From positions 33,982 to 97,981 of the forward strand of contig NZ_JANQIM010000037.1 in the NCBI RefSeq assembly GCF_028282165.1: a stretch of DNA of 64,000 nucleotides, in the 5' to 3' direction. The translations under genes were made by a program, and so were the position numbers. Below are positions 4,214 through 51,234 of the stretch, piece by piece (position 1 is the first letter of the stretch; the number at the start of each line of letters is the position of its first letter). A model generated the notes under the pieces. The model was not told the DNA's origin. It did no database searches and was given only the letters and a program-made list of their open reading frames with translations. The stretch comes from Winogradskyella sp. (GTDB lineage: Bacteria > Bacteroidota > Bacteroidia > Flavobacteriales > Flavobacteriaceae).

Positions 4214-5164
4214 ATGAAAGTATTAGCAAACGACGGTGTTTCACAAAGTGGTATCAACACTTTAGAAGCTGCAGGATATGAAGTTATCACTACCAATGTA
4301 GCACAAGAACAACTTCAAAATTATATCAATGATAATGGCGTAACAGTACTTCTTGTGCGAAGTGCTACCAAAGTTAGAAAAGACATTATTGACAATTGTC
4401 CAAGTCTTAAAATCATTGGTCGTGGTGGTGTTGGTATGGACAACATCGATGTAGCATATGCAAGGGAAAAAGGCCTGCATGTTATTAATACACCCGCAGC
4501 ATCTTCGCACTCCGTTGCGGAATTGGTTTTTGGTCATTTTTATGGTCTAGCACGGTTTTTACATAAATCTAACCGAGACATGCCTTTAGAAGGTGATGCC
4601 AACTTTAAAGGTTTAAAGAAAGCCTATGCAAAAGGAACGGAATTAAAAGGAAAAATCCTTGGCGTGATTGGTTTTGGTCGTATTGGTCAAGCCACGGCCA
4701 AAATAGGAATTGGAGCAGGAATGAAAGTTGTGGCCTACGATCCATTCATAGAAAAAGCCAATCTTGAATTGGAATTCTTTGACGGTCAAAAAGTGAGTTT
4801 TGAGATCGATACCATTTCTAAGGAAGAGGTTTTAAAACAAGCCGACTTTTTAACATTGCATGTTCCGGCACAAAAAGATTATGTTATTGATGAGACTGAC
4901 TTCAACGCTATGAAAGATGGTGTTATTATTGCCAATGCTGCACGTGGTGGCGTAGTCAATGAAGTAGCACTAGTAAAAGCTATTGAAAGTGGTAAAGTCG
5001 CAAGAGCTGCTTTGGATGTTTTTGAAAAAGAGCCAAAACCCGAAATTCAATTATTAATGAATTCTGCACTGTCACTAACACCGCATACGGGCGCGGCGAC
5101 AAATGAAGCGCAAGATAGAATTGGCGTGGAACTTGCAGACCAAATCATTAGTATTTTGGGATAA
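4214..5164 (+). CDS. serA: D-3-phosphoglycerate dehydrogenase-like 2-hydroxyacid dehydrogenase
   Basis: The track ORF starts at 4196 inside the REP hairpin; MKVLANDG at 4214 is the likelier start. It has an NAD-binding GVIGFGRIGQ motif and a D-isomer dehydrogenase signature, and sits next to serC. Confidence 0.8.
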   Translation: MKVLANDGVSQSGINTLEAAGYEVITTNVAQEQLQNYINDNGVTVLLVRSATKVRKDIIDNCPSLKIIGRGGVGMDNIDVAYAREKGLHVINTPAASSHSVAELVFGHFYGLARFLHKSNRDMPLEGDANFKGLKKAYAKGTELKGKILGVIGFGRIGQATAKIGIGAGMKVVAYDPFIEKANLELEFFDGQKVSFEIDTISKEEVLKQADFLTLHVPAQKDYVIDETDFNAMKDGVIIANAARGGVVNEVALVKAIESGKVARAALDVFEKEPKPEIQLLMNSALSLTPHTGAATNEAQDRIGVELADQIISILG

Positions 5165-15378: not shown

Positions 15379-16712
15379 TAACTCTTTTTTCTAAAGACTA
15401 CGAATAACAACGCTATAATAAGTACGCTACCTAATATAAAAATCCATGTAGGGATTCCATCCTCGTGATCATGATCATGTGTATGCGTACTATCATCATG
15501 TTTGTGGGTCACCTCAAACGTCAATGTTGCCCATTTAGAGCGATGCGTTAATTCATCACTATCCGTAACACTAACCATATGAATGGTTCGTAAGTAGTAA
15601 ATACCGTCTTCTGGTAGATTTACAGAAACAATGCCTTGGTCATTGGTCCGTAACTGCTGACCACTGGTATGTGAATGGTCTTTTTCTGGCTTTGATTTGT
15701 CAGTATGGCTATGCGCACCGTCACCGTGCTTGTGTTTATGGGAGTGCTTTTTGCCATCATGCTCATTACTGTGCTCACCATCATCATGCTTATGCTCGTG
15801 GGAATGTTTTTTTCCTTCGTGCTCATGCTCATGGCTGTGCTCACCGTCACCGTGCTTGTGTTCATGGGAGTGCTTTTTCCCATCATGCTCATGACTATGC
15901 TTACCATCATCATGCTTATGCTCGTGGGAATGTTTTTTTCCTTCGTGTTTGTGCTCATCATGGTGATGTTCACCTTCATCATGCTTATGTTTTTTATCAC
16001 CATGACTATGGCTGTGACCATGACCATGATCATGATCATGGATTACTTTGATATAATCCGCATAAACGAGTTGATTGGCTAAAGGTGCTCCATCTAACAA
16101 TAACTGCACTTCCAACTTATCACCAGTATACTTTTCATAAGGATTTGCTAATGTCACAAACTCAATAGGATAGCCCAAAACCGTTTTCCAATCGTCTGTT
16201 TTTACATCACCCACTTGATAGATCGCTTTTACATGCTTTTCATAACGCTCTATAGCATCTTGATCCAATAAGTCATTATCCGTGCGGTATTCGAGCATAT
16301 CTAAAACACCATCGTGTTTAAGGTAGTTGTTAAACTTTTCGGCGGTGAGTTCTATATTTCTGGCTTTGGTTGAGACACCTGCTACATAAGTTGCGGCTTC
16401 AATAGGCGTAAATTTAAATTGTGTAATGGTGGTGTCCTTATCTGTCCATTGACTTGCATCTACAGTTAATCGGTTTCCCTGATATAAAATAGAAGCATCT
16501 TGCATACGATCGCGCGCAATAATATTTTCACTATTTTCAAAAGTCCCATTGTATAGGCTTAAGGTCGCTTCTTGATTAGGTTTCAAGAAATAGGTGTCCA
16601 TTTTTATATACAGGTCGTGACTGCATAATAGAATGACAGCGAGGAGTAAGTAAAAAGGCCTAAAAACCCTGTATTTTAAGCTTTTTGTGATTGTTCTTCT
16701 TATTAAATTCAT
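15378..16712 (-). CDS. DUF4198-like periplasmic metal-uptake protein with a large His-rich insert and C-terminal TM anchor
   Basis: 444 aa. The N-terminal SHDLYIK...LSLYNGTFE block is like the DUF4198/NikM-type domain. About 120 aa of H/K/D/E/G repeats follow, then a C-terminal THTHDHDHEDG segment and a TM helix. It is co-transcribed with HupE/UreJ. Confidence 0.7.
   Translation of the reverse strand: MNLIRRTITKSLKYRVFRPFYLLLAVILLCSHDLYIKMDTYFLKPNQEATLSLYNGTFENSENIIARDRMQDASILYQGNRLTVDASQWTDKDTTITQFKFTPIEAATYVAGVSTKARNIELTAEKFNNYLKHDGVLDMLEYRTDNDLLDQDAIERYEKHVKAIYQVGDVKTDDWKTVLGYPIEFVTLANPYEKYTGDKLEVQLLLDGAPLANQLVYADYIKVIHDHDHGHGHSHSHGDKKHKHDEGEHHHDEHKHEGKKHSHEHKHDDGKHSHEHDGKKHSHEHKHGDGEHSHEHEHEGKKHSHEHKHDDGEHSNEHDGKKHSHKHKHGDGAHSHTDKSKPEKDHSHTSGQQLRTNDQGIVSVNLPEDGIYYLRTIHMVSVTDSDELTHRSKWATLTFEVTHKHDDSTHTHDHDHEDGIPTWIFILGSVLIIALLFVVFRKKS
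15716..15967. repeat. 126-nt tandem duplication (2 copies, each built of two ~60-66-nt sub-repeats) encoding His-rich peptide repeats
   Basis: caccgtcaccgtgcttgtgtt... recurs at 15716 and 15842 (126 nt = 42 codons apart). It encodes GKKHSHEHKH(D/G)DG(K/E)HSHEH units. The wider His-rich coding tract spans about 15668-16039. Confidence 0.85.
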
Positions 16713-40178: not shown

Positions 40179-40727
40179 TTACATCAAACCTTTATCCTTC
40201 AAACGGTCACGTGCACTTTTCTTTTCCACTTCTGGTTCGGTTTCTGGTTGCATATCCTCTTTGGGTTCTTCAACAATCTTATCGGTATCTGGTTTTAAAT
40301 CTTCAATTAAGTCTTTACCTTTTTCCACAGCATCAGTCACCAAATCGCCTAGGGAATCACTTTTCTCTTCAATAACTTTAGATGATTTTATTACAAAACT
40401 TGCCAAGTAAGTTCCAATTATAGTTCCTGTGGCAAAGGTTGCTAAACCAGATAAACCATAGAAGTTTGTAAATACTTTAATTGGCGTTAAGAATTGGAGA
40501 ATTAGTCCAATAATTAGAAGCGAAATAACTACAAATAGTAATCTTGGTATAAATGGCTGCTTATAGATAAATCCTTTAGGGTTATCGTCACTCATCTGGA
40601 GTTCTTTACTATTCATTATTTTATTGATAAATCGATAAGCGCCGTTTCCATTAGATTCTCGCCAATATATAAAAATCCCTACTAGAATAGCAGAAACAAA
40701 AATTATGATGTCAATTCCTAATCCCAT
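40179..40727 (-). CDS. membrane protein with acidic C-terminal tail, unknown function
   Basis: 182 aa with 3 TM segments and a C-terminus rich in E/K/D/P. Confidence 0.55.
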   Translation of the reverse strand: MGLGIDIIIFVSAILVGIFIYWRESNGNGAYRFINKIMNSKELQMSDDNPKGFIYKQPFIPRLLFVVISLLIIGLILQFLTPIKVFTNFYGLSGLATFATGTIIGTYLASFVIKSSKVIEEKSDSLGDLVTDAVEKGKDLIEDLKPDTDKIVEEPKEDMQPETEPEVEKKSARDRLKDKGLM

Positions 40728-40740
40728 TTTTAAAAAGTTA

Positions 40741-40768
40741 GAAGGTAGAAGAACGAAGCCTGAAGTTC
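40741..40768. repeat. heptamer array (GAAGNNN)x4, flank of four-helix-bundle gene 1
   Basis: GAAG occurs at 40741, 40748, 40755 and 40762, an exact 7-nt period. Confidence 0.85.
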
Positions 40769-40781
40769 GTTATTACCTTTA

Positions 40782-41138
40782 TTAATGTTTTATCTTATTT
40801 CTGAATGCTATAGTCATATTCATTGAATCAAAACAGTCCTTATAATAGTTCTCAAATGTTTTTGTTTTCAAATAATTTCTTCTATTTGCTTTATGCAAAC
40901 ATGTTACTACTTCCGCAATAGATCGAATCGAATATCCCAAAAACTTTCTATATTCTGGTCCTGATTGCAAAATAGATCCTTCAGAAATATTTAATGCTAT
41001 AGAATCTGAAGCTCTTCGTAATTGAGAAGATAAATTAAAGTTTTCCTTATCAGGAAACAAATCAGCAAGCTCATTCATATCATCTCCCAAATCCATTGCT
41101 TTTTGCCAAATTAACAAATCTTCAAACCTAAACTTCAT
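40782..41138 (-). CDS. four-helix-bundle protein (23S rRNA intervening-sequence protein family, Avd-related)
   Basis: 118 aa with MKFRFEDLLIWQKAMDL...QLRRASDSIALNISEG, characteristic of the TIGR02436/PF05635-type family. Confidence 0.8.
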   Translation of the reverse strand: MKFRFEDLLIWQKAMDLGDDMNELADLFPDKENFNLSSQLRRASDSIALNISEGSILQSGPEYRKFLGYSIRSIAEVVTCLHKANRRNYLKTKTFENYYKDCFDSMNMTIAFRNKIKH

Positions 41139-41179
41139 AATATTAGTATAGAAAAATCAATTTTTGTTACTATAGACAT

Positions 41180-41277
41180 CTTCCAACTTCAAACTTCAAA
41201 CTACAAACTCCAAACTTCTCACTTCTCACTTCCGACTCCAAATACCCAAAACCAAAAACCCAAATGCCAAACTCAAA
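41180..41277. repeat. heptamer array, 14 units of (CTTC-like + NAA), inverted relative to 40741-40768
   Basis: cttc caa cttc aaa cttc aaa ctac aaa ctcc aaa cttc tca cttc tca cttc cga ctcc aaa tacc caa aacc aaa aacc caa atgc caa actc aaa. This is 98 nt = 14 x 7, almost G-free on the plus strand. Confidence 0.85.
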
Positions 41278-41278
41278 A

Positions 41279-41316
41279 GATTGCTTCGTCCCAAACGTCC
41301 TTGCAATGACACGCGC
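41279..41316. repeat. REP-like element (gattgcttcgtcccaaacgtccttgcaatgac) splitting the heptamer array
   Basis: It has the '..ttgcaatgac' terminus. Heptamers resume at 41331-41351 (ctcc aaa ctcc taa cttc taa). Confidence 0.45.
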
Positions 41317-41351
41317 ATTATTATTTTGTACTCCAAACTCCTAACTTCTAA

Positions 41352-42587
41352 CTATATGTTACTACTAATCGTTTCTATCACCCAATCCTTAAATGAATCA
41401 TTCCATGTCTCATAACTCTTGTAAAACTGTTCTTTATCGTACCAATACAAAAACAAAACATCCTTGGGCGAAATGTTAACTAACAGTTTATGTATTAAAT
41501 CACGATGCTTCGTTGACAGTGATGAATGTGGCTGATGCAAAGCAAAATATATGGCTTGATCTACCATATCCTCAATTTTATAGGCATTACTGCGCTCAAG
41601 CCTCTCAAGGTAAAGCTCAGCTCCCATTATTTGTTTTCGGGATTTGATATCTATTTTGTTGAGATAACTCCTAAACAAGGACTTGCTATCAAGGATTTCT
41701 TTTATCGGATGCTCTGCATCTTTAAGCAATTGGTATAGTTCAAATTTTTTAATGCGATCGTAATTGGGTGTTGTTACCATATACTCCAAATCACATTCGA
41801 TAATGATATGGCTCTTTAATTTATCGACCAGTTCTGGTTGGTTTATGTGGTATATCAGAACATCATGAATGGTATCTTTAATGGCTTCTTTATAGACCTT
41901 ATCACTTTCAAAAACCAAAATGGGCTTAATGAAGTCCCTCAATAAGTAAACACCACCAAAGGCCCTCGTATAAAAGGAATCAGTAGAAAAATGCAACGGA
42001 CCGAGGTTTAAATCCCTATTGCGCAAATCGCCATAAGTCTTTGCAGAATCCAACAACTCTTTATGTATTTGTTCATCAATAAAATTATTTTCTGTTTTAA
42101 ACTTATCGACGAGTTTTAGTTGTTCTTTTTGCTTTTCTTCGAGATTATCTATTAGTCTAAAAGTAATACTTACATCTTCATATTTTAAAACATCCAAGGG
42201 CTCATAAAACACGTCAATATCCTGGTCAAAATCAATACAAATAGCAGAATCTCTCGTAATATCATTTATTTTGCTTCCGTGTGTTCTGAAGATATGTAGC
42301 ATCATTTCCCTATCGAAGGAATGAAACGGTAAATAAACGGGTTTTCCTTTTTGCAATGGTGAGATAATGATGCCATGTGGATTAGCATCACCATGATTTA
42401 AATAATGAACATCATTTTTTTCTTCTGCAACCTCAGGACTCCAACCCACACCATCAATAGAAAAAGATTTGAGCTTTGTTGCTTTAAATCCTAGAGTTTT
42501 CAAGCACTTATTGTAACGCTCCACCAACTTTCCGCTTACGGGAATAAGTTCACTTCTATATAGATTTGCTTGTTTTAATTTGTCCAT
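41352..42587 (-). CDS. hypothetical protein (411 aa), operon member
   Basis: The track ORF extends to 42647, but its first 20 codons (MSFLRKQESQ...) translate the REP hairpins. MDKLKQANLY at 42587 is the likely start. Confidence 0.55.
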   Translation of the reverse strand: MDKLKQANLYRSELIPVSGKLVERYNKCLKTLGFKATKLKSFSIDGVGWSPEVAEEKNDVHYLNHGDANPHGIIISPLQKGKPVYLPFHSFDREMMLHIFRTHGSKINDITRDSAICIDFDQDIDVFYEPLDVLKYEDVSITFRLIDNLEEKQKEQLKLVDKFKTENNFIDEQIHKELLDSAKTYGDLRNRDLNLGPLHFSTDSFYTRAFGGVYLLRDFIKPILVFESDKVYKEAIKDTIHDVLIYHINQPELVDKLKSHIIIECDLEYMVTTPNYDRIKKFELYQLLKDAEHPIKEILDSKSLFRSYLNKIDIKSRKQIMGAELYLERLERSNAYKIEDMVDQAIYFALHQPHSSLSTKHRDLIHKLLVNISPKDVLFLYWYDKEQFYKSYETWNDSFKDWVIETISSNI

Positions 42588-45199: not shown

Positions 45200-45233
45200 T
45201 AGTCTTCAGTTCGCAGTGCCCAGTCTACAGTCA
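45200..45233. repeat. heptamer array (YAGTNNN)x5, core CAGT, flank of four-helix-bundle gene 2
   Basis: tagt ctt cagt tcg cagt gcc cagt cta cagt cac. CAGT occurs at 45207, 45214, 45221 and 45228. Confidence 0.85.
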
Positions 45234-45239
45234 CTTTTA

Positions 45240-45608
45240 TTATTTAAATTTATCAGGGTTATTCATCATGTAGTGGATGAGTTTGCCTATTTCTTCGCTT
45301 TTTAAATGCAATTCATTCTTATCTTTTTCAGAAATATATTCGCAAGCTAATGCAAAGTCCAGCCACAATTGAGTCTCTGAGTTTTCACTATCAGCATCAG
45401 ACATTTTGCTTTTAAAATGTTTCTCATATTGTCGTTTTCTGTAGCCCTCTGCAATATTCGAACATACAGACCGACTCGATCTAACCATTTGCGATGTTAA
45501 TCCAAACATTTCAGATTTCGGAAACTGTTTAGTCAAATGAAAAATATCCATTGCTAGATTGAAACCTTTTTGATATGCTAATAATGTTTTAAATGACATA
45601 TTGCTCAA
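45240..45608 (-). CDS. four-helix-bundle protein (23S rRNA IVS protein family)
   Basis: 122 aa with ...AYQKGFNLAMDIF...QMVRSSRSVCSNIAEGY... It sits inside the operon, between the 348-aa gene and the AAA gene. Confidence 0.8.
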   Translation of the reverse strand: MSNMSFKTLLAYQKGFNLAMDIFHLTKQFPKSEMFGLTSQMVRSSRSVCSNIAEGYRKRQYEKHFKSKMSDADSENSETQLWLDFALACEYISEKDKNELHLKSEEIGKLIHYMMNNPDKFK

Positions 45609-45615
45609 TTCTCTT

Positions 45616-45650
45616 ACTGCATACTGCCAACTGAAACTGCATACTCATAT
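45616..45650. repeat. heptamer array with core ACTG (inverted relative to 45200-45233)
   Basis: actg cat actg cca actg aa actg cat actc ata tact. Periods are 7, 7, 6 and 7 nt. Confidence 0.8.
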
Positions 45651-50605: not shown

Positions 50606-50636
50606 TATGTGTTAGTTTATTGTATATTGTTTATAG
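50606..50636. repeat. T/A-rich ~7-nt periodic array (tatgtgt tagttta ttgtata ttgttta tag...)
   Basis: It flanks the disrupted four-helix-bundle gene. It shares the unit TTTATAG with the reverse complement of 51028-51056. Confidence 0.5.
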
Positions 50637-51024
50637 TTAATTATTGCTTTTTTTAAATTTTTGTCCTTTTATTTTTGAGTTTCTTAAATAGTACATTAAT
50701 GCGCCAATTTTATTTTTAACCGTTTCACACATTTCGGATAGTTTTTCAAAATCAGTTTGACTTATATAGCCTTTATCTAATAGACTTTAACTCGCTGGCA
50801 GATCCTTTGGAGTAACTCAGGAAGTTATGGAATTCTTTCGTTCCATCTCTATCAAAACCTTCTGCTATGTTATCCATAATCGAACCAGAACTTCCTTCCA
50901 TCTGATTTCTTAGCCTAGAGTTATTTATAATTTGAGTAGAATTAATAAGGGTATCGACAAACTGACAAATCTTCCTAGCTCTCTGCCAAACTTCCAAGTC
51001 CTCAAACTTTTCAATACGCGCCAT
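50637..51024 (-). pseudogene. disrupted four-helix-bundle (23S rRNA IVS family) gene
   Basis: The first 81 aa are family-typical (FEDLEVWQRARKI...GSIMDNIAEGF...SASELKS), then IR-stop at 50773. The family C-terminus (LLDKGYISQTDFEKLSEMCETVKNKIGALMYYL...) continues in another frame down to 50637. The E..YI spacing is about 5 aa shorter than in the two intact copies, suggesting a short out-of-frame deletion. Confidence 0.65.
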
Positions 51025-51027
51025 GGA

Positions 51028-51056
51028 CTATAAACCTTTGACTCTAAACATCTAAA
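51028..51056. repeat. ~7-nt periodic array ctataaa cctttga ctctaaa catctaaa
   Basis: It lies immediately upstream (in gene orientation) of the disrupted four-helix-bundle gene, inverted relative to 50606-50636. Confidence 0.45.
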
Positions 51057-51234
51057 CACGTCCTTTTAAAGCATTAAACACCCAAGCTATTGCAAAAAAA
51101 CCAATACCTACGGTTGCAAATCCCCAACCTGCAACATCATCGTATCGGTAAGCACCCATGAGAATCAATAAAACACCCATGATTATCATTAGTACCGTAG
51201 CCCAAGCAAGTACGGTATTTTTATTCATCGCCAT
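51052..51234 (-). CDS. small 2-TM membrane protein
   Basis: 60 aa with two hydrophobic helices. Confidence 0.4.
   Translation of the reverse strand: MAMNKNTVLAWATVLMIIMGVLLILMGAYRYDDVAGWGFATVGIGFFAIAWVFNALKGRV

Follow-up and report, generated by a model that had tools for sequence, protein, structure and literature searches.

Here, we analyzed a 64,000-nt stretch of the genome of the flavobacterium Winogradskyella sp. (contig NZ_JANQIM010000037.1, positions 33,982 to 97,981; hereafter called the window) and, within it, a short gene that sits between two tandem arrays of 7-nt units, or heptads. The 118-aa product of this gene, which is 100% identical to a Winogradskyella record, belongs to PF05635 (E = 1e-27, 97 bits at a Pfam cut-off of 33.8) and to TIGR02436 (92 bits at a cut-off of 24). 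PF05635 is its sole Pfam match, with no Y1 (IS200/IS605-like) transposase detected. An earlier note on this DNA had described the gene as a four-helix-bundle member of the rRNA intervening sequence (IVS) family lodged in an operon gap, and both the profile matches and the orientation of its neighbors bear this out: the DUF6638 gene upstream, the PF05635 gene itself and the membrane-protein gene downstream all lie on the minus strand (Table 1). The protein also matches 2GSC (E = 1e-13), an entry comprising five chains, and, judging from its sequence, it probably forms a four-helix bundle that assembles into a pentamer like its relatives. Its ratio of nonsynonymous to synonymous substitution rates (dN/dS) against 13 orthologs is 0.05-0.15 (about 0.1), and its average identity to orthologs amounts to 77%, compared with 70% and 56% for the two neighbors; the protein is functional and under strong purifying selection.

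Read on the gene strand, the first heptad (on the 41351 side) directly abuts the DUF6638 stop codon (41352-41354). Three heptads are followed by an interruption of 53 nt, 14 heptads of the type NNNGAAG (the last five degenerate), a 41-nt leader, the open reading frame (ORF), 13 nt, five heptads of the type CTTCNNN and, after another 6 nt, the ATG of the next gene. The comparisons described below establish that this unit, hereafter called cassette A, is one instance of a conserved cassette type, with the arrays representing its inverted arms.

Table 1. Features of cassettes A, B and C and of the genes hosting cassette A (positions in the window; unit sequences on the gene strand).
Feature	Position	Strand	Basis
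Upstream host gene, DUF6638, 431 aa	41352-42647	minus	PF20343, E = 9e-36; syntenic neighbor in 37 loci
Cassette A, distal block of 5' arm, 3 heptads (TTAGAAG TTAGGAG TTTGGAG)	41331-41351	minus	sequence
Cassette A, 53-nt stretch without heptads, splits 5' arm	41278-41330	minus	sequence
Cassette A, main block of 5' arm, 14 heptads, NNNGAAG type, purine-rich	41180-41277	minus	lag-7 score, TRF
Cassette A, leader between 5' arm and ATG	41139-41179	minus	alignment with empty sites and array-only site
Cassette A, PF05635/TIGR02436 four-helix-bundle gene	40782-41138	minus	profile match
Cassette A, 3' arm, 5 heptads (GAACTTC AGGCTTC GTTCTTC TACCTTC TAACTTT), pyrimidine-rich	40734-40768	minus	sequence
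Downstream host gene, 182-aa membrane protein, no Pfam match	40179-40727	minus	ORF and Pfam scan
Cassette B, 5' arm, 5 units NNNCAGT (one a 6-mer)	45616-45649	minus	TRF period 7, sequence
Cassette B, gene for second PF05635 protein, 119 aa, also bAvd-like	45240-45599	minus	E = 5e-33, 114 bits
Cassette B, 3' arm, 5 units ACTGNNN	45200-45231	minus	sequence; ends 5 nt before ATPase ATG
Cassette C, frameshifted PF05635 pseudogene (50637-51024) with degenerate inverted flanks	50606-51059	minus	sequence

The tandem units of cassette A occupy intergenic regions between co-oriented ORFs. On the plus strand, the downstream array carries GAAG at 40741, 40748, 40755 and 40762, as previously described, as well as a degenerate fifth unit, AAAG, at 40734. 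Similarly, the main upstream array indeed consists of exactly 14 heptamers (98 nt) with only two G residues on the plus strand, and the three further units of the distal block are present as reported. Of the pattern that had been ascribed to this array (a CTTC-like core plus NAA), the core is found in the first nine units; the last five (TACCCAA, AACCAAA, AACCCAA, ATGCCAA and ACTCAAA) keep just the period and a CAA tail. The main array shows 46 matches at 56 positions at a lag of 7, versus a mean of 15.4 (standard deviation 3.7), which is the strongest lag-7 signal in the window. Runs of at least three GAAG or CTTC cores at 7-nt spacing are confined to the two flanks of the gene within the 64 kb, compared with 0.15 in shuffled sequence, and the core scan at this spacing returned no further copy of the GAAG array in the window.

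The interruption places the two blocks of the 5' arm out of register. It has no second copy in the window and folds no better than shuffled sequences (z = +1.07). It contains the sequence TCATTGC...GAAGCAAT (41281-41313), whose ends match a family of small hairpins that is scattered over related genomes (58 matches in 1.15 Mb of related loci, versus 6 in shuffles). The proposal that a repetitive extragenic palindromic (REP)-like element had inserted here thus finds weak, partial support in the end motif, whereas the uniqueness of the stretch in the window and its weak fold do not fit, and a REP element in the sense of a repeat within the window was rejected because there is a single copy with an unstable fold. 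The hairpin family takes the forms (G)TCATTCCTGCGAAGGCAGGAAT(C) and TCATTGCGA...CGAAGCAAT, of which the window copy is a degenerate version. Copies lie at the junction between the DUF6638 gene and the transmembrane-protein gene itself in loci L136, L138, L159 and L160, and others are found at L004 1698, L009 4945, L015 4960, L029 6795 and further sites.

Heptad arms are a signature of the family as a whole. We compiled 109 PF05635 genes from four independent samples, including 80 loci that encode close relatives and were taken from one-genome-per-species contigs, and determined the best lag between 4 and 12 for each flank and for 310 control segments. A lag of 7 scored best in 79% of the upstream flanks (85/108) and 86% of the downstream flanks (91/106), compared with 4% of the controls (13/310), so that the test proposed in the earlier note revealed a clade-wide enrichment of 7-nt periodicity beside family members; at higher stringency, lags 7 and 8 alone occur. 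Among the 80 Bacteroidota loci, 62 contain GAAG heptads within 200 nt upstream and 62 contain CTTC heptads downstream, with both present in 57. On the sense strand, the upstream arm is G-rich in 86 of 89 and the downstream arm C-rich in 86 of 92 cases. The inverted arrangement of the arms, which is thus seen both in cassette A and family-wide, reduces to a single invariant: the G-rich strand runs 5' to 3' into the cassette from both sides. The most common arm length is 4-5 units (28-35 nt), making the 14 + 3 units in the window atypically long.

The sequence of the unit varies between lineages and sites. Loci without the GAAG pattern carry other mutually inverted heptamers, such as NGATGAC/GTCATCN between thrB and thrC, GGTGTTT/ACACCAA or GGAGTCG-type units. 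In Xanthomonadaceae, orthologs of the crystallized protein XCC0516 (2GSC) occupy the gap between accB and accC and have (CGGGAAT)n and (CATTCCC)n flanks, equivalent to a GGGAATC/GATTCCC unit. In the distant Bacteroides clade that includes 2RLD, the gene is located between araD and araA or between aminotransferase and DAHP synthase genes and has (TTGACAA)n/(TTGTCAA)n flanks. Likewise, about 20 of 24 loci on diverse viral contigs from IMG/VR (28-45% identity to the query, GC content 38-66%) display the inverted-arm layout with a lineage-specific unit; in one of them (L102), the units comprise 8 nt (GGAACTAA/CTTAGTKC), indicating that the 7-nt period is not absolutely fixed. Units also vary from one genomic context to another and are common to both arms, with TTT/CAC at the DUF6638 site, GAT at ruvB and GAC at ftsA, a feature that speaks for pairing of the arms. 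Single searches returned thousands of PF05635 homologs.

Comparison of occupied and empty sites indicates that gene and arrays were inserted together. Using the DUF6638 protein, we retrieved 80 metagenomic loci, 67 of which had a junction that could be scored for arrays. Both arrays were present at all seven junctions containing the gene. Of the 60 junctions lacking it, none carried both arrays and 54 had no array, showing instead a conserved spacer of ~41 nt (GWWTTTTAGACTAATTTTATAAGAACCTTAAAC...); four contained only a CTTC and two only a GAAG array, and one of these six (L152) retains the 3' end of a four-helix-bundle ORF, which probably makes it a decayed cassette. By arithmetic from these counts, the chance that all seven filled sites fall among the 13 array-bearing sites is ~2e-6. 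The notion that gene and arrays form a single insertion in an operon gap is therefore supported by close relatives with an empty, array-free 41-nt spacer, whereas the idea of a cassette fixed at the DUF6638 junction throughout the Flavobacteriaceae was rejected, given that 60 of the 67 scorable metagenomic junctions lack it. In the alignment with empty sites, the segment 41139-41172 of the leader proved to be a relic copy of the 3' end of DUF6638 together with the TAGACTAAT motif from the ancestral spacer, so that the 5' arm lies inside a short duplication. In the Winogradskyella lineage, this duplication of the DUF6638 3' end spans ~15 nt and brackets the 5' arm only; no clean target-site duplication around the whole cassette was seen in these alignments. 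At another site (L173), the 5' arm and the duplication are present and the gene is absent.

Collectively, these data argue against the view that the arrays are ordinary microsatellites or G-quadruplex repeats whose proximity to the gene is due to chance or to a local bias in mutation. Heptamer arrays do occur away from PF05635 genes, and 578 kb of loci contain 18 strict ones (for instance upstream of three other genes in L017); in addition, the GGGAATC arrays of Xanthomonas form G-quadruplexes in vitro (PMC4692102). However, the prevalence of lag 7 in gene flanks over controls, the inversion and almost invariably equal polarity of the arms, and the contrast between filled and empty junctions render this explanation highly improbable. 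In agreement with the earlier statement that the arrays are no simple microsatellite, both the shuffles and the control segments led us to reject a chance origin. Moreover, neither GAAGNNN nor NNNCAGT units contain a run of three or more G. Since GAAG, TTGACAA and CAGT units are devoid of G-tracts, G-quadruplexes are not the common denominator of the arrays, and we rejected them as a common function because most units lack such tracts.

The cassettes are found at ~30 different junctions among the 80 loci, with many cassettes located inside conserved operons (thrB|thrC, nuoJ|nuoK, ftsA|ftsZ, ruvB|queG, accB|accC and araD|araA), and in 65 of 72 loci they are co-oriented with both neighbors. Each junction type forms a clade of its own, with identities of 77-82% within and 65-75% between contexts. 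These patterns bear on the possibility that the arms act at the DNA level, either as the ends of a mobile cassette or as substrates for its recombination. In that case, the PF05635 protein would be a trans-acting partner, comparable to the REP-associated tyrosine transposase (RAYT) of REP elements and REP doublets (REPINs), and gene-less array pairs would represent non-autonomous derivatives or scars. The presence/absence polymorphism among close relatives and the multitude of junctions are consistent with such a role, as are the array-only and decayed sites (L173, L136, L152), the location of the Winogradskyella 5' arm within a duplication, the gene-less pairs of GAAG array, loop and CTTC array in Polaribacter loci and the dispersal of the unit flanking the Xanthomonas gene at 186 sites, including 70 convergent pairs (PMC4692102). 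However, the cassette does not encode any nuclease, transposase or recombinase but just a 118-aa helical bundle, the duplication flanks one arm rather than the whole element, and the GAAG array is unique in the window. In addition, the junction types are inherited vertically, implying that movement is rare. We therefore regard a DNA-level function as a tentative possibility; it would be compatible with a role of the arms in RNA.

Within the cassette, a search for an intrinsic terminator or a sigma-70 promoter yielded nothing beyond the level of shuffled sequences, and such signals were rejected on this basis, with the reservation that the model behind the scan does not represent Bacteroidota promoters. 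Together with the co-orientation and the location within operons, this result favors a dependence of the cassettes on the transcription of their hosts. Rfam did not report any rRNA or other family at a meaningful score in the region 40500-41600. A known RNA family was thus rejected as well, the single match up to E = 1 being a eukaryotic snoRNA model far below threshold. Separately, a conserved box (TATCTTTA/TATATTTA) was observed at -20 to -26 relative to the ATG of PF05635 genes in about 20 of 37 syntenic loci (L007, L008, L011, L016-L019, L028, L032 and others), which resembles the Bacteroidota -7 promoter element TAnnTTTG. The TAnnTTTA box, although present in other genera, is absent from the window and the Winogradskyella lineage, where the relic of the DUF6638 3' end stands in its place.

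The inverted arms are predicted to pair with each other. We determined their complementarity by ungapped scoring and assessed inter-flank pairing by partition-function folds of whole cassettes. Cognate arms reached a complementarity score of 14.9, compared with 11.6 for non-cognate arms and 8.6 for shuffles. In the ensemble, 25 bp connect the flanks, versus 10 when the 3' flank is shuffled (38 loci, p = 3e-9); for a second set of relatives, the corresponding values were 37 and 20. The minimum free energy (MFE) fold predicted for cassette A contains 38 pairs between the upstream and downstream flanks, joining 41338-41349 to 40733-40744 and 41199-41229 to 40745-40774. The earlier note had concluded that the flanks cannot form a continuous duplex, as only four of every seven positions are conserved. 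In view of the 38 MFE pairs, this verdict was too strong, and the four-in-seven pattern describes the degenerate copy in cassette A rather than the class, because the arms of most relatives are complementary at all seven positions of the unit.

Our analysis leaves us evenly poised on what we consider the best explanation of these features, namely that the arms of a promoter-less cassette may pair across the ORF in the operon transcript and undergo RNase III-type processing, as in IVSs. The closest known parallel is provided by the ORF-bearing 23S rRNA IVSs of Coxiella burnetii, Leptospira and Brucella, in which a PF05635 ORF is looped out by terminal inverted repeats and oriented like the host transcript. 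In the Coxiella IVS, the ORF occupies the loop of a 28-bp terminal stem that is cut by RNase III at its middle, and two to three GACAGAT heptamers, whose copy number varies between strains, are located just upstream of the ORF (PMC4990558). The suggested analogy to IVS stems thus holds, with heptamers preceding a PF05635 ORF inside an RNase III-cut stem. GACAGAT corresponds to the GATGACA unit of L067 in circularly permuted form, the 28-bp stem corresponds to four heptads, close to the modal arm length of the cassettes, and the complementary termini enclosing the ORF have their counterpart in the MFE pairs predicted for cassette A. The two systems differ in that the host RNA is an operon mRNA here but helix 45 of the 23S rRNA in the IVSs, that the Coxiella ORF has been reported to decay while the cassette A protein is under strong purifying selection, and that the heptad nature of both arms has not been described as a general feature of IVSs. 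PF05635 ORFs are also found in rRNA insertions of candidate phyla radiation bacteria (bioRxiv 10.1101/2024.02.27.582315).

In this explanation, the unit is a cassette without a detectable promoter or terminator that was inserted, in the orientation of the operon, into the ~41-nt spacer between the DUF6638 and membrane-protein genes. Its terminal inverted repeats are built of tandem heptamers, with a purine- and G-rich arm 5' of the ORF and its complement 3' of it. The data above demonstrate the unit with its arms, the complementarity and polarity of these arms, the insertion and the selection on the protein, whereas pairing of the arms is a prediction. Upon transcription of the operon, the arms would pair over the ~350-nt ORF to form a long imperfect stem with the ORF in its loop, and this stem might serve as a signal for processing or insulation, by which the cassette RNA is released or isolated while the host operon remains functional; here, cleavage by RNase III is inferred from the IVS parallel. 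We further reason that tandem units would make pairing independent of register, such that slippage could alter the copy number without loss of the stem; that placing the G-rich arm first might ensure that a C-rich, G-poor single strand, a potential loading site for Rho, is never exposed; and that distinct units would prevent cross-pairing between cassettes of one transcript.

Several observations weigh against this explanation. Mismatches between the arms do not show any G.U-compatible bias on the sense strand (109 vs. 102, in addition to 263 transversions), and a strict covariation of an RNA helix was rejected on these grounds. The complementarity consequently does not look like the product of nucleotide-level selection on an RNA helix; the missing wobble bias fits a homogenization of DNA, as expected if the arms served as DNA termini. 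Moreover, the fold of the whole cassette is no more stable than that of shuffles (z = 0.09), and in the window shuffling of the pyrimidine-rich flank leaves substantial pairing with the long purine arm (17-32 bp vs. 35 bp). The TAtcTTTA box of ~20 of the 37 syntenic loci is situated downstream of the 5' arm and ahead of the ATG; should it act as a promoter, an mRNA started there for the gene itself would not include the 5' arm. Finally, a plain stem has no need for a 7-nt period, so that something else must set it, and of all features, this period is the one least well accounted for by the RNA-stem model.

Two further cassettes in the window allow a comparison within one genome (Table 1). Cassette B lies between a 348-aa ORF and an AAA ATPase gene, in the same run of co-oriented genes as cassette A, and its protein is 44% identical to that of A over 50 aa. 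Its arms are predicted to form 21 bp, versus 0-6 in shuffles; in the MFE fold, the 5' arm forms 20 bp with 45201-45224. The downstream arm is not C-rich and thus constitutes an exception to the polarity rule. The NNNCAGT core resembles the units CCCCAGT and CAACAGT of the short tandemly repeated repetitive (STRR) sequences of cyanobacteria. Cassette C, which lies downstream of a LytTR regulator, is flanked by a 60-aa membrane ORF and an ABC-F ATPase gene. Its upstream flank contains two copies of GTTTAG-type units with a period of 8, and its downstream flank consists of TAAAC-type units at lag 7 that are among the lag-7 peaks of the window. The three proteins are thus associated with three different units. 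Elsewhere in the window, the region 15705-16040 contains a long tandem repeat with periods of 60, 66 and 126 (73-92% matches), followed by a run of ACCATG hexamers. Given its many CAT and CAC triplets, one of its strands may code for a repeat protein rich in histidine.

The constancy of the period across phyla, combined with a freely variable unit sequence, is reminiscent of a ruler rather than a sequence motif, as would be expected if the arrays were a binding platform accommodating one protein subunit per heptad. The ligand could be the encoded pentameric protein, which would regulate its own synthesis or package its RNA or DNA; alternatively, a host protein that binds single strands, for example S1 or a cold-shock protein, could take this role. 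Such a platform would be in line with the modal arm length of 4-5 units and the preference for four units in Xanthomonas (PMC4692102), with the five chains seen in the crystals of the homologs 2GSC and 2RLD and the homopentameric toroid reported for the Xanthomonas protein (PMC4990558, which cites Lin 2006 for this point), with the combination of different proteins and different units in the three cassettes of the window, and with the binding of a reverse transcriptase-RNA complex by the related Avd. However, a single-strand binder would not require a complementary second arm, paralogs with 65-75% identity carry quite different units, the protein is near neutral by a hand count of its charged residues, and the period is 8 nt in L102 and cassette C. 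A binding platform therefore appears doubtful to us, even though it would be compatible with pairing of the arms in the transcript.

Arrays and PF05635 genes are also found in other arrangements. In Gelidibacter mesophilus (L017), arrays at 1930-1970, 2550-2642 and 5064-5107 lie directly upstream of NUDIX, DUF6638 and 582-aa genes without an adjoining PF05635 gene, and every operon gap has its own purine-rich unit (AGACAAC, AATTAAG, AGAAACA, GACAACA); heptad arrays are thus not exclusive to the cassettes. Polaribacter and Gelidibacter additionally contain gene-less pairs that form tight hairpins, with a GAAG array, a loop of 13-90 nt and a CTTC array. These are located just after the PF05635 stop codon and at about +650 to +900 in L021, L029, L030 and L033 and upstream in L031 and L035; they are sometimes stacked beside a full cassette and resemble the 70 convergent pairs of Xanthomonas. 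In two IMG/VR loci (L096 57-2471 and L104 103-1617), a PF05635 ORF is nested in another frame of a larger gene, which we take to be a PglX/Eco57I-type methyltransferase gene based on recognized motifs. The host frame remains open through the whole ~360-nt insert in both diverged lineages, such that the host protein would gain an insertion of ~120 aa. In L096, a second four-helix-bundle gene follows (2499-2888), which is 2RLD/Avd clade-like by its motifs.

Heptamer arrays have been described as simple sequence repeats (SSRs) in several bacterial groups. They include 186 GGGAATC arrays in Xanthomonas, which mostly comprise four units and are transcribed, GGGGAYT arrays in Nostoc (PMC4692102) and TAACTGA arrays in Beggiatoaceae (PMC4679880). 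Like the arms of the cassettes, the published repeats (cyanobacterial STRR, GGGNATC, TAACTGA) are made of 7-nt units with four or five of seven positions conserved, lie between co-oriented ORFs, prefer about four units, often occur as convergent pairs and are transcribed (PMC4692102, PMC4679880), and the Xanthomonas unit is identical to that flanking the Xanthomonas PF05635 gene. However, these studies treat the arrays as free-standing repeats with G-quadruplex or translational roles and do not mention PF05635 (PMC4692102, PMC4679880). Moreover, most published arrays have no gene between them, and the GAAG and CAGT units of the window cannot form G-quadruplexes. The earlier note knew of no description of such heptamer flanks. 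Heptamer arrays as such are already published; for the link between the PF05635 family and flanking arrays, our literature search did not find a description beyond the single Coxiella case.

It is tempting to speculate that PF05635 is the missing partner of heptamer arrays in general, including STRR, the Xanthomonas GGGAATC repeats and the flavobacterial arrays, with a pentameric ring that reads 7-nt steps and nucleates, maintains or moves the arrays, although we consider this quite doubtful. A gene with its own arrays would then be an autonomous copy and gene-less array pairs its dependants. A conceivable route would be reiterative synthesis at the 3' ends of DNA, in which a polymerase or reverse transcriptase (RT) would act as partner, because the G-rich strand always runs 5' to 3' into the cassette from both host flanks.

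Similar architectures are known from other elements. As in the case of REP/REPIN elements and their RAYTs, a single small gene is bracketed by inverted short repeats that can be dispersed in intergenic regions. However, a Y1 transposase or any other catalytic domain is missing here, the arms are tandem arrays rather than single palindromes, and the repeat is not dispersed in the window. The relation to the Avd proteins of diversity-generating retroelements (DGRs) proposed earlier is supported by membership in the same four-helix-bundle superfamily (PMC10053308) and by the match of the cassette B protein to the bAvd-like family. In contrast to DGRs, there is no RT Pfam match among the scanned genes flanking cassette A (DUF6638, NUDIX, AAA ATPase and membrane proteins) and cassette B (two ORFs without Pfam match and an AAA ATPase); no search was made for template and variable repeats. 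Integron cassettes share with the cassettes described here a promoter-less, co-directional ORF that is expressed from host transcription and an imperfect inverted-repeat site, whereas the present repeats are two-sided tandem heptads without an integrase or attC architecture. Moreover, rather than being collected in one array, the cassettes are distributed among housekeeping operons.

Our findings connect two puzzles. PF05635 is a very large family, with three copies in the 64-kb window alone, that has no known function outside the Avd proteins of DGRs, and for the tandem heptamer repeats of cyanobacteria, Xanthomonas and other bacteria, no function has been agreed on since about 1990. That the gene and its inverted heptad arrays constitute a single conserved package, which occurs in rRNA as well as in housekeeping operons and even within ORFs, gives both a common and testable frame. 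This result recasts the intervening sequences as a general type of cassette that is not confined to rRNA, and its sequence signature enables annotators to recognize such cassettes as well as their decayed remnants.

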